11,597 bases of DNA from a virus (IMGVR_UViG_638341087_000009:1-11597); one strand, 5' to 3'; positions 2,896 to 8,812 are shown, counted from the first letter of the stretch. Notes: a model not told the origin generated them from the letters alone. Program-made: numbers and translations.

Positions 2896-3168
2896 ATGAA
2901 TGATCATGTTAAGAAAAGGGTCGCGGGAAAATTTTCACAACGAGAACTGGCTATGTTAATGAGCACGAAACAACAAAGCGTATCTCGTTGGTTCAACTCT
3001 AAGTTCCCTGCATCAAGGGTGCTTCACTTGTGTCAATTGATGCAGTGGGAGGTTACTCCACACGAACTCCGACCAGACATTTACCCTAACCCAACCGACG
3101 GTTTACCCGTTGGATGTAAGGCTAACACATCAAATGCACCGGAGTTGATTCATGAAAATCAAGCATGA
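2896..3168 (+). CDS. ydaS: YdaS-like Cro/HTH protein (90 aa)
   Basis: GGAGG (2883-2887) 8 nt before ATG 2896. HTH-like ...FSQRELAMLMSTKQQSVSRW.... Divergent from the repressor, as in the Rac racR-ydaS-ydaT arrangement. The track ORF from 2818 is an upstream extension through the operator region. Confidence 0.7.
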   Translation: MNDHVKKRVAGKFSQRELAMLMSTKQQSVSRWFNSKFPASRVLHLCQLMQWEVTPHELRPDIYPNPTDGLPVGCKANTSNAPELIHENQA

Positions 3169-7226: not shown

Positions 7227-8096
7227 ATGACCACTATTACCAAAGAACGTATTGAATTGTTCATTAAAAATCCGGTTGAAAACGGGCTTACCCGTGGTGA
7301 ACAAATGGAACTGGCACGGATTGCGCTGGCATCGCTGGAAGCAGAGCCGGTGGCAAAGATTATAGCTCATTACCCATTAGGGGTTGACGTAGGCAAACAA
7401 AAATTCGTACAGGCCATTAGAGAGCTTCCTGACTTTGGCGGATATCTATTTGCCGCCCCTCCAGCGCCGATAGTGCCGGAAGAAATGTATTGGCAGGATG
7501 CGCCAGTTGAAGGCAGCAGCAAAGCGGCTGCATACGCTACAGGCTGGAACGATTGCCGCGAAGCCATGCTTCAGTCCGGAAACTTTCGGGAAAATAAAGA
7601 TTCGTCAACCAATAATTTTCGGAAAATCCCGGAAGCGTCAACCAGCTCTCCGGTAACTCCGGCTCTTCTGCCTGGTGGTTTCACCATTGAGGAGGCGAAG
7701 GAATTACATGAAGACCTGGTACGCAGCCACATAAGCAAGGCCTTAAGTGGCGAAAAGATGAAAAAGAAAGATCGCGATGCTGATTTGCGCTGGATTCATG
7801 GCGTTATAGTTCAGGCAGCGTGGTTTGTAAAAGCATCACTGGAGCAGAATGCACTATCGGGCAACTATCCGGTAACTCCGGATAGTTGGATAAGCTGTAG
7901 TGAGCGAATGCCGGATACCAAAACAGCCGTTCTTGTTGCCGTGGAGTTTGACAGGAAAGGTGACTGGCGAATGAAATGGGCGACTTACATCCCGGGGCAT
8001 CCTGACGCTAATGATGGGTGGATAATTCCTGGTGCGTCGTGGAAACCGTCACACTGGATGCCGCTACCAGAACCGCCGCAGGAGGTGCGCCAATGA
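7227..8096 (+). CDS. DUF551 domain-containing phage protein (289 aa)
   Basis: AAGGAG (7215-7220) 6 nt before the ATG. C-terminus ...WISCSERMPDTKTAVLVAV...GWIIPGASWKPSHWMPLPEPP matches the DUF551 signature recalled from memory (WxxxxExxP ... HWMPLPEPP). The roughly 220-aa N-terminal region is unassigned. Confidence 0.7.
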   Translation: MTTITKERIELFIKNPVENGLTRGEQMELARIALASLEAEPVAKIIAHYPLGVDVGKQKFVQAIRELPDFGGYLFAAPPAPIVPEEMYWQDAPVEGSSKAAAYATGWNDCREAMLQSGNFRENKDSSTNNFRKIPEASTSSPVTPALLPGGFTIEEAKELHEDLVRSHISKALSGEKMKKKDRDADLRWIHGVIVQAAWFVKASLEQNALSGNYPVTPDSWISCSERMPDTKTAVLVAVEFDRKGDWRMKWATYIPGHPDANDGWIIPGASWKPSHWMPLPEPPQEVRQ

Positions 8097-8176
8097 ACTG
8101 GCCTGAAGCATTTGCAATTACAGGCGTTGCTATGGCTATCGCTTTTTTAGTATATGTTATTTGTCGGTGGGGGTAA
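8093..8176 (+). CDS. Unannotated tiny hydrophobic ORF (27 aa): MNWPEAFAITGVAMAIAFLVYVICRWG
   Basis: ATG overlaps the upstream stop (ATGA); GGAGGTG (8081-8087) lies 5 nt upstream. One predicted transmembrane segment. Too short for the ORF track. Confidence 0.35.
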   Translation: MNWPEAFAITGVAMAIAFLVYVICRWG

Positions 8177-8211
8177 AAACGTTCGCCGGGATTAACACCA
8201 AAGGAGGGAAT

Positions 8212-8316
8212 ATGTCGGATGATATCTCACTGGCAATGGAAGGTGCGCTGGCTGTTATTGCTGTTGTGGGCGTTTACTGCCTGGTTGTGTTTTTGATGGA
8301 TCGACTAGGGAACTAA
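8212..8316 (+). CDS. Unannotated small membrane peptide (34 aa): MSDDISLAMEGALAVIAVVGVYCLVVFLMDRLGN
   Basis: Strong SD AAGGAGGG (8201-8208) 3-4 nt before the ATG. One transmembrane segment with a charged C-terminus. Confidence 0.45.
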   Translation: MSDDISLAMEGALAVIAVVGVYCLVVFLMDRLGN

Positions 8317-8324
8317 ATTCATTA

Positions 8325-8346
8325 CGATATGGGAATTCCCATATCG
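8325..8346. repeat. 22-bp perfect palindrome CGATATGGGAATTCCCATATCG
   Basis: Exact inverted repeat with no spacer, centred on GAATTC, between the small-peptide gene and the hok promoter. Confidence 0.8.
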
Positions 8347-8358
8347 GGTAAAAACGGT

Positions 8359-8386
8359 TTGCGGTAAAGCGAGAGTTAAGTAGAAT
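8359..8386 (+). promoter_or_regulatory. Candidate promoter for the hok/mok mRNA
   Basis: TTGCGG (8359-8364), 16-bp spacer, TAGAAT (8381-8386). Predicted start near 8393 gives an mRNA of about 420 nt to the terminator at 8812, similar to known hok mRNAs. Confidence 0.4.
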
Positions 8387-8440
8387 TGCTGCGGGCGCTT
8401 GAGGCTGTCTGCCTCGGGCATGCCACCGTAAGGCAGACAG

Positions 8441-8512
8441 AGAAAAGCCCCAGTTAACATTACGCGTCCGGCAAGACGCTTAACATTAATCTGAGGCCAT
8501 ATCTATGCTCTA
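8441..8512 (-). ncRNA. Candidate Sok-like antisense RNA (about 70 nt)
   Basis: Weak minus-strand promoter (TTGCCT, complement of 8543-8548; 17-bp spacer; TAACCT, complement of 8520-8525). Transcript would be antisense to the mok-frame SD and ATG (8493-8507). It would end in a minus-strand hairpin (arms 8491-8497 / 8447-8453, inner stem 8464-8468 / 8475-8479) followed by UUUUCU. Structure-based inference only. Confidence 0.3.
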
Positions 8513-8561
8513 CACACGTAGGTTAGCCTCTTACGTGCCGAAAGGCAAGGAGAAGCAGGCT

Positions 8562-8717
8562 ATGAAGCAGCAAAAGGCGATGCTAATCGCCCTGATCGTC
8601 ATCTGTTTAACCGTCATAGTGACGGCACTGGTAACGAGGAAAGACCTCTGCGAGGTACGAATCCGAACCGGCCAGACGGAGGTCGCTGTCTTCACAGCTT
8701 ACGAACCTGAGGAGTAA
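8562..8717 (+). CDS. hokD: Hok/Gef-family type I toxin (51 aa), closest to HokD/RelF; in-frame Mok-like extension from ATG 8505
   Basis: MKQQKAMLIALIVICLTVIVTALVTRKDLCEVRIRTGQTEVAVFTAYEPEE is the Hok family signature (transmembrane helix plus ...TRK.LCE..IR.G..EVAAF.AYE). AAGGAG (8547-8552) lies 9 nt before ATG 8562. The upstream in-frame ATG 8505 with its own GAGG gives a 70-aa form, as in chromosomal mok genes. Confidence 0.85.
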   Translation: MKQQKAMLIALIVICLTVIVTALVTRKDLCEVRIRTGQTEVAVFTAYEPEE

Positions 8718-8785
8718 GAGACCCGGCGGGGGAGAAATCCCTCGCCACCGCTGATGTGTCAGGCATCCTCAACGCACCCGCACTT

Positions 8786-8812
8786 AACCCGCTTCGGCGG
8801 GTTTTGTTTTTT
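8786..8812 (+). terminator. Intrinsic terminator of the hok transcript
   Basis: Stem AACCCGC / GCGGGTT with TTCG loop (8786-8803), followed by TTGTTTTTT. Confidence 0.65.

Follow-up and report, generated by a model that had tools for sequence, protein, structure and literature searches.

A perfect 22-bp palindrome beside a prophage hok locus is probably the orphan of a palindrome embedded in KilA-N genes

Why should a perfect, spacer-free palindrome of 22 bp lie directly in front of a prophage toxin promoter? The element (CGATATGGGAATTCCCATATCG, with arms of 11 nt) occupies positions 8325-8346 of a viral stretch of 11,597 nucleotides, which is called here, in its entirety, the window. The initial annotation had singled it out as an exact inverted repeat with a chance expectation far below one, and both statements hold. 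Any perfect spacer-free 22-bp palindrome is expected about 0.003 times in 11.6 kb (11,576 x 4^-11), CGATATGGGAATTCCCATATCG found no match in 200 dinucleotide-preserving shuffles of the window, and the element is single-copy in the window even at up to 3 mismatches. The distances to its neighbors were each off by one: 8 nt (8317-8324), not 9, lie between the stop codon TAA (8314-8316) of a 34-aa peptide gene and the palindrome, and 12 nt (8347-8358), not 13, separate it from the proposed -35 box TTGCGG (8359-8364) of the hok promoter.

The window represents the early-right (nin) region of a Rac/lambda-like prophage and carries, in this order, a repressor gene, a cro-like and a cII-like gene, replication genes, a DUF551/EaA-like gene, two tiny hydrophobic peptide ORFs, mok/hok/sok, DUF968, RusA and a Q-like antiterminator. 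The features surrounding the palindrome are the following.

8093-8176, plus strand: ORF of a 27-aa hydrophobic peptide (MNWPEAFAITGVAMAIAFLVYVICRWG); its start overlaps, as ATGA, the stop codon of the preceding 289-aa gene, and its PHROG match is weak only
8171-8181, plus strand: left copy of the 11-bp direct repeat GGGTAAAAACG, where homology to phage 933W stops, to resume at the second copy
8212-8316, plus strand: gene of the 34-aa hydrophobic peptide (MSDDISLAMEGALAVIAVVGVYCLVVFLMDRLGN), with a strong AGGAGG ribosome-binding site
8312-8324, minus strand: putative KilA-N coding remnant of about 13 nt (TAATGAATTTAGT in the window, GAGTTAATTCAAT in the intact gene, encoding E-L-I-Q), overlapping the stop of the 34-aa peptide gene
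8325-8346, no strand assigned: the palindrome CGATATGGGAATTCCCATATCG, unique in the window; in KilA-N genes the same 22 nt encode D-M-G-I-P-I-S
8346-8356, plus strand: right copy of GGGTAAAAACG, whose first G is the last base of the palindrome; the hok-side junction
8359-8386, plus strand: putative hok promoter, conserved with 933W (-35 TTGCGG at 8359-8364, 16-nt spacer, -10 TAGAAT at 8381-8386)
8393-8567, plus strand: 5' part of the hok mRNA with the mok leader and the Sok target region (Rfam RF01794, 114 bits, E = 5e-27)
8443-8513, minus strand: predicted Sok antisense RNA, placed by alignment offset from sokW of 933W (L001 2261-2331, minus strand)
8505-8717, plus strand: mok, with hok (8562-8717, 51 aa) nested within it
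8786-8803, plus strand: intrinsic terminator ending the hok transcript (GC-rich stem, then a T-run), from the terminator scan

The hok locus is of the hokW/sokW type known from phage 933W. A consensus scan gives no call for its putative promoter because the -35 box matches the consensus at only 3 of 6 positions, so that the assignment rests on the Rfam boundary and on homology to hokW/sokW of 933W. Compared with 933W, the window contains an extra block of 175 bp, bounded by GGGTAAAAACG, which comprises the 34-aa peptide gene, the relic and, at its right end, the palindrome; GGGTAAAAACG looks like a short boundary sequence for the exchange of nin-region modules. The 34-aa peptide is annotated as hypothetical protein WP_001278450.1 in a near-identical prophage and has no match in family searches. 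A homologue of it also precedes hok at loci that have no palindrome, and 933W contains an unannotated homologue of the 27-aa peptide ORF (MTWPEAFANVGTVMAVVLVVYSICRWR) directly before the hok promoter. The two ORFs may thus encode membrane peptides regularly linked to hok. Two further observations concern other parts of the window. A sub-threshold match in Rfam to the Hfq-binding sRNA IsrK (27 bits against a gathering score of 50) covers 8726-8807, overlapping the 3' end of the hok transcript and its terminator. Next to the immunity region, a minus-strand ORF at 1884-2294 resembles, by eye, a RelE/ParE-type toxin (…HPNYIILYRV…IEIVSVIHARQ…) and has a small ORF (1453-1695) beside it.

Several familiar classes of element do not account for the palindrome. 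An intrinsic terminator or 3' stabilizer was rejected: no T-tract follows on either strand, as the initial annotation had noticed, the terminator scan makes no call at 8325-8346, and the element is usually intragenic where it occurs elsewhere. A known structured RNA family was rejected likewise, for Rfam gives only hok/sok, from 8393 onward, and has no match to the palindrome, be it in the window or within intact KilA-N genes. Presence of a single copy in the window disfavors a dispersed intergenic repeat or MITE and also a prophage repressor/Cro operator set; for the latter, related half-sites (up to 2 mismatches) stand at chance level, with 4 found against 3.0 expected and 2 of the 4 being the palindrome itself.

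The same 22-mer is found far beyond this prophage family. It occurs exactly in at least 120 viral contigs and in 63 stretches of species-representative genomes, against about 0.03 expected by chance in 596 Gb, and its carriers belong to Cyanobacteria, Bacteroidota, Bacillota, Alpha-, Beta- and Gammaproteobacteria, Chloroflexota, Spirochaetes, Saccharibacteria and others. Its flanks are wholly different between hosts and have the base composition of the respective host, which rules out recent transfer or contamination. About 40 of the 63 matches lie at one fixed position in genes for KilA-N-domain proteins (Pfam PF04383, E down to 5e-27), 64-78 nt upstream of the codons for G-T-W-V-H-P. Most lineages read the 22-mer as D-M-G-I-P-I-S, and the Bacteroidota homologues read it one frame over, as R-Y-G-N-S-H-I, at the same position of the domain. 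The element is tied to the canonical KilA-N domain, whatever C-terminal domain follows. In the nearest solved structure, the APSES domain of Mbp1, the palindrome-encoded peptide aligns as an insertion between helix 2 and the beta-hairpin wing. The window palindrome fits the general form CG-N-T-N-N-GGGAATTCCC-N-N-A-N-CG and is identical to the commonest allele of the KilA-N in-gene palindrome. Searching other genomes, as the initial annotation had proposed, therefore reveals very strong conservation, not the lack of it that had been thought to count against a site, although the reasons are unrelated to hok.

Some of these loci deserve separate mention. Genes of the Bacteroidota type (L123, L128, L140, L160, L164, L182 and L432-L452) encode RYGNSHI, RYGNSHN or RYGNSRN and differ in length from the DMGIPIS type by 4 residues. 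KilA-N pseudogenes or rearranged genes are broken at the palindrome or within 19 nt of it in Oscillatoria (L163, 4291), Nostoc (L143, 955) and Xenorhabdus (L170, 507); in the last of these, the palindrome is crossed by a new ORF that starts 8 codons upstream. In a Siccibacter prophage (L019; L183, 7601), the palindrome plus 11 nt (GATTAAATTCA) is enclosed by the two arms of a larger, imperfect inverted repeat, GACGGTAATCGT ... ACGATTTACCGTC; this repeat is itself flanked by the direct repeats TTAAATTGGGTT and TTTAATTGGGTT and lies upstream of phage replication genes. This arrangement looks like the insertion of a 33-nt unit. Giant palindromes of about 100 bp that appeared in some viral loci were dismissed, their "arms" being the two flanks of one KilA-N gene in opposite orientations.

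Is it the encoded peptide or the nucleotide sequence that is kept within KilA-N genes? The first hits had been chosen for the exact sequence, and we therefore used two further samples picked by protein motifs that exclude the palindrome, one viral (n = 80) and one metagenomic (n = 72). At least 10 of the 11 complementary pairs were present 64-78 nt upstream of the G-T-W codons in 73/80 viral and 46/72 metagenomic KilA-N genes, figures slightly inflated by taking the best palindromic 22-mer within 80 nt, against 0/80 and 0/71 in control stretches of the same size from the same genes. The alleles differ by paired changes (e.g., CGTTATGGGAATTCCCATAACG, CGATACGGGAATTCCCGTATCG, CGCTACGGGAATTCCCGTAGCG, CGTTGCGGGAATTCCCGCAACG, TGAAACGGGAATTCCCGTTTCA, CGATATGGGGATCCCCATATCG and CGATATTCAGATCTGAATATCG), and these shift the encoded residues in step, for example from M...I to T...V or A...A. 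Over 46 distinct alleles, from sequences that are related and not phylogenetically independent, 91.9% of the cells are paired versus 75.0% after shuffling, a value that none of 500 shuffles reached. Ten of the 11 arm pairs change on both sides, the covariation score is 0.50 versus 0.195, and pairing falls to 36-45% if the partner is slid by 1-3 columns. Codon usage at the site, counted in the same kind of related genes, is frozen on choices that are rare elsewhere in them: Pro is encoded by CCC in 54/54 ORFs (against 12% of Pro codons elsewhere), the second Ile by ATA in 49/49 (23% elsewhere) and Ser by TCG in 44/45 (15% elsewhere), and the preceding codon has C as its last base in 52/54. Taken together, the palindrome inside KilA-N genes is kept as nucleic acid, not as peptide, and thus qualifies as a cis-acting element. 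What it would be kept for is less clear-cut, in that template switching between the arms might keep palindromes perfect with no selection for binding.

A cis-acting element of this kind could work as DNA or as RNA. The second option, a transcript hairpin serving as terminator, insulator or 3'-end stabilizer of the peptide mRNA, or controlling processing or translation in KilA-N mRNAs, has some points in its favor. RNA folding predicts a 9-bp stem with an AAUU loop, a 4-nt-loop hairpin forms on both strands, the palindrome in the window comes 8 nt past a stop codon, and compensatory changes are what an RNA helix would also display. The mismatches in the stem tell otherwise, as sense-strand G.T is not in excess over A.C (6 versus 10) and no wobble bias is apparent. 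Moreover, the central four bases, the would-be loop, remain self-complementary in both reading frames, the palindrome occurs in either orientation and in non-coding arrays, and it is accompanied by no U-tract, no terminator call and no Rfam family. The self-complementary center, the missing G.U bias and the free-standing non-coding copies and arrays lead us to prefer a site in duplex DNA over an RNA hairpin, which we regard as very improbable.

Free-standing copies have mixed contexts, and no constant partner gene was found beside them. An Alcaligenaceae MAG (L136, 2528-2704) contains four different palindrome alleles within about 180 bp of non-coding DNA of a GC-rich genome, upstream of an 806-aa ORF that has no Pfam match. 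A tandem pair lies in non-coding DNA of Tolypothrix (L172), and copies at contig ends (L180, L146, L176) suggest a repeated element that breaks assemblies. In a Calothrix MAG (L126), two palindromes of the family (2933-2954 and 3065-3086) are located about 145 and 275 nt upstream of a KilA-N gene that has its own in-gene copy; these extra copies come directly after a ribbon-helix-helix-like gene, an operator-like arrangement seen only there.

The most attractive reading of such a duplex-DNA element is a two-fold symmetric site for a dimeric protein. From the sequence comparisons, the KilA-N protein itself would be the leading candidate, so that each gene would carry the cognate site of its own product; we put this forward tentatively, as a proposition that falls a little short of an even chance. 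Perfect two-fold symmetry, an operator-like length and the two copies upstream of the Calothrix KilA-N gene are shared with the operators of dimeric phage repressors. The palindrome differs from these in being single in the window, usually intragenic and, at 131 of 143 intact KilA-N loci, present as the in-gene copy only. General autoregulation via promoter operators was rejected on this count, a second copy nearby occurring in just 12/143 loci with Calothrix L126 as the sole clear case. Targets inside the gene of their own binder have precedents in phages. The origin of replication of lambda lies within gene O, and the Roi site of HK022 is said to lie within roi (reportedly described by Clerget and Boccard in 1996). 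In both cases protein and site travel together, as they would here if KilA-N proteins bind the palindrome. The sites of lambda and HK022 are confined to one phage family each, whereas the KilA-N palindrome spans phyla, with compensatory changes and in two frames.

A closer precedent, by analogy, is provided by a DNA element inside a defense gene that interacts with the product of that very gene. Prophages encoding BstA escape their own abortive-infection protein through aba, which acts as DNA (Owen et al. 2021, PMC8585504). The aba element of BTP1 consists of 63 bp, from -29 to +34 of the bstA start codon, with terminal CCCGCC direct repeats, and is non-palindromic; the paper makes no mention of a palindrome or inverted repeat (PMC8585504). 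For the intact alleles, the likeness is that of a short DNA element within a BstA-family prophage gene, aba being inherited together with its protein. Differences are equally evident, as the palindrome lies at +173 of the intact gene, is two-fold symmetric and is near-identical across phyla, whereas aba is cognate-specific. In BTP1, the KilA-N-like domain encoded by bstA is divergent and the homologous position carries no palindrome, and identity of the palindrome with the published aba was rejected for these differences in position and sequence.

How, then, did an in-gene element come to stand alone beside hok? In enterobacteria, the gene with the palindrome codes for a protein of 257 aa (WP_000200358.1) that has KilA-N at its N-terminus and, as its C-terminal domain, one of the BstA family (PHROG 6287, E = 3e-89; PADLOC BstA, E = 3e-21). 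RefSeq names this protein only "KilA-N domain-containing protein"; the palindrome is also present in genes for KilA-N proteins that have no such C-terminal domain. In E. coli 7/2 and in 10 viral loci, the intact 257-aa gene lies directly upstream of hok and divergent from it, in the slot that the palindrome takes up in the window, and in related Rac/lambda-like prophages this slot is found between the replication block and the NinB/Q block. At the intact loci, the palindrome is 173 nt into the gene and about 530 nt from the hok start. Its place beside hok is thus explained by history.

No KilA-N ORF was found in the window, and only 8/13 nt of the adjoining coding sequence match the intact gene, so that the palindrome is to be seen here as an orphan and not as a resident copy. 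The 8/13 match of the remnant, weak by itself, relies on sister haplotypes, in which 9-10/13 nt agree, against a background of about 27% beyond. Hok contexts with a long relic match the intact gene at 20-21 of the 30 nt beyond the palindrome, and at one locus (L354) a decayed copy of a different allele stands beside an obvious "ERIQSVK" remnant. On the hok side, similarity of the 30 nt to the gene's 5' side is at background (4-10/30) in every hok context, which places the junction exactly at the palindrome's edge. Sequence evidence thus gives good support to the view that the window palindrome is an orphan of the in-gene palindrome, left by a lost KilA-N/BstA-like gene. In the lineage of the window, the gene would have disappeared apart from its 22-bp palindrome and the next 13 nt or so of coding sequence downstream, through a palindrome-promoted deletion or recombination that would fit the position of the junction, and the fragment would now reside in the 175-bp block between the 11-bp direct repeats, beside a 933W-type hok promoter. 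The window was rejected as a simple deletion derivative of the intact-gene arrangement at L041, where the region upstream of the hok promoter is a different variant with homology only from the -10 box. Among 5,426 complete E. coli genomes, about 666 have hok with the orphan palindrome beside it, an arrangement that is rare on plasmids (5 of 72,556 records), while the intact 257-aa allele with the exact palindrome occurs in 137 E. coli genomes only.

This history has to be weighed against the role in hok regulation that the initial annotation had implied, namely that a dimeric regulator binds the palindrome and controls the adjacent promoter. The geometry would permit it. The palindrome spans about -68 to -47 relative to the start of the hok transcript, its center being about 57 nt upstream, a distance from which a bound protein can affect a promoter; the exact 22-mer adjoins hok in 79 of 120 viral loci, among the matches listed, and it is better preserved than its flanks. 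Yet hok loci sampled by their promoter, which fall into several upstream types, contain no palindrome in about half of the cases, the 933W type and two further upstream types among them. At loci with an intact KilA-N gene the site is remote from hok and intragenic, no second site or extra half-site occurs in the window, and the identical sequence in KilA-N genes of many phyla has no evident link to hok. In about 7 hok-context haplotypes, damaged palindromes (a 1-nt deletion, point changes, truncation of an arm) persist beside apparently intact hok loci. The complete hok/mok/sok locus of the window, which resembles those of Stx and lambdoid phages, lies downstream of the palindrome, which falls before the transcript start, outside the Rfam hok/sok model (start 8393), and which many loci of this family do not have. 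A hok operator is therefore improbable; in our reading, the palindrome is no dedicated operator of hok and would be either inert or a residual orphan site for a KilA-N-type binding protein. What stands of the earlier proposal is that the element is not a terminator, given the absent T-tract and its intragenic location elsewhere, and that a symmetric protein-binding or recombination-prone DNA site is its best reading. As a whole, the explanation that combines the orphan origin, a cis-acting DNA site in KilA-N genes and no operator of hok appears probable to us, with roughly twice as much speaking for it as against it.

Whether the orphan retains a function is a separate matter. At least 9 flank haplotypes keep the perfect 22-mer while their flanks are swapped or diverged, a diversity that is unusable as a test of selection because the filter limited palindrome divergence and the flanks are partly non-homologous. 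Across hok contexts, identity is 82% in the palindrome versus 56% in the adjoining remnant, which is suggestive only, the sample being small and one haplotype a truncation. This difference and the excess of orphans over intact genes in E. coli may hint that the orphan is not inert. It could have been selected after the loss of the gene to titrate or recruit KilA-N/BstA-like proteins of other prophages or phages, for example as an aba-like immunity element. Besides the preservation and abundance just described, this possibility can draw on the BstA-family nature of the enterobacterial carrier and on the fact that a short element within the bstA locus, acting as DNA and in trans, neutralizes BstA systems (PMC8585504). 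Several points weaken it. Damaged palindromes occur in about 7 hok-context haplotypes, BTP1 aba differs in sequence and place and is reported to be cognate-specific whereas the palindrome is nearly universal, and one aba copy in the chromosome was reported not to protect in trans (PMC8585504). Abortive-infection activity of the 257-aa protein is itself putative. A selected decoy hence seems unlikely to us, though less so than the other rivals of the preferred reading.

A different account dispenses with a dedicated binding protein and regards the palindrome as structure-prone DNA, a hairpin or cruciform that template switching keeps perfect and whose only effect would be to attract deletions and mosaic recombination. 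It is established that template switching can turn quasi-palindromes into perfect ones. All hok contexts have one junction exactly at the edge of the palindrome, the palindrome is joined to several unrelated flanks, and the pseudogenes of Oscillatoria (L163) and Nostoc (L143) break at it or no more than 19 nt away. As a general mechanism, palindrome-associated deletion and template switching match these edge junctions and swapped flanks and account for the rise of the orphan, but not for conservation inside KilA-N genes. Mutation alone leaves the fixed position across phyla and the frozen rare codons unexplained, as well as the core GGGAATTCCC kept in two frames and the conserved outer CG...CG, and the non-coding arrays of different alleles look like sites, not accidents. 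Structure-prone DNA as the full explanation is accordingly as improbable as a hok operator, and we return to the preferred reading of an orphaned cis-acting DNA site.

Few DNA-binding domains are as widespread among phages and large DNA viruses as KilA-N, from which the APSES factors of the fungal cell cycle descend. In neither Rfam nor, within its limits, the searchable full-text literature was a prior description of the in-gene KilA-N palindrome found; no target site of a bacterial KilA-N protein was found reported there, nor anything relevant on the mechanism of BstA after 2021. The palindrome in KilA-N coding sequence is thus apparently an undescribed DNA signal. Read in two frames, altered by paired changes that modify the encoded residues, and found in free-standing copies and arrays, the frozen 22-bp palindrome constitutes a concrete candidate target for KilA-N domains. 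How aba DNA neutralizes BstA, and where aba lies in other members of the family, are left open by the original report (PMC8585504). A bolder scenario would join both subjects: the palindrome would be the cognate target of canonical KilA-N domains, would serve BstA-like proteins as an aba-like self-immunity site and, once orphaned, would be retained as a decoy against the defense of neighboring prophages. We consider this conjunction unlikely, slightly more so than the simple decoy. If true, a prophage devoid of bstA would be immune to KilA-N/BstA-type defense by virtue of an anti-defense element made of DNA only.

To conclude, for hok biology the outcome is mostly negative, as it leaves the palindrome outside the hok/sok control circuit. 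For genome annotation, our findings illustrate that a striking "operator-like" palindrome beside a promoter can be the footprint of a lost gene, and the 22-mer may serve as a marker to find lost-gene footprints of this kind. The feature in the window is itself a probable gene remnant; the main interest lies in the covarying 22-bp palindrome embedded in the coding sequences of KilA-N genes across bacteria.
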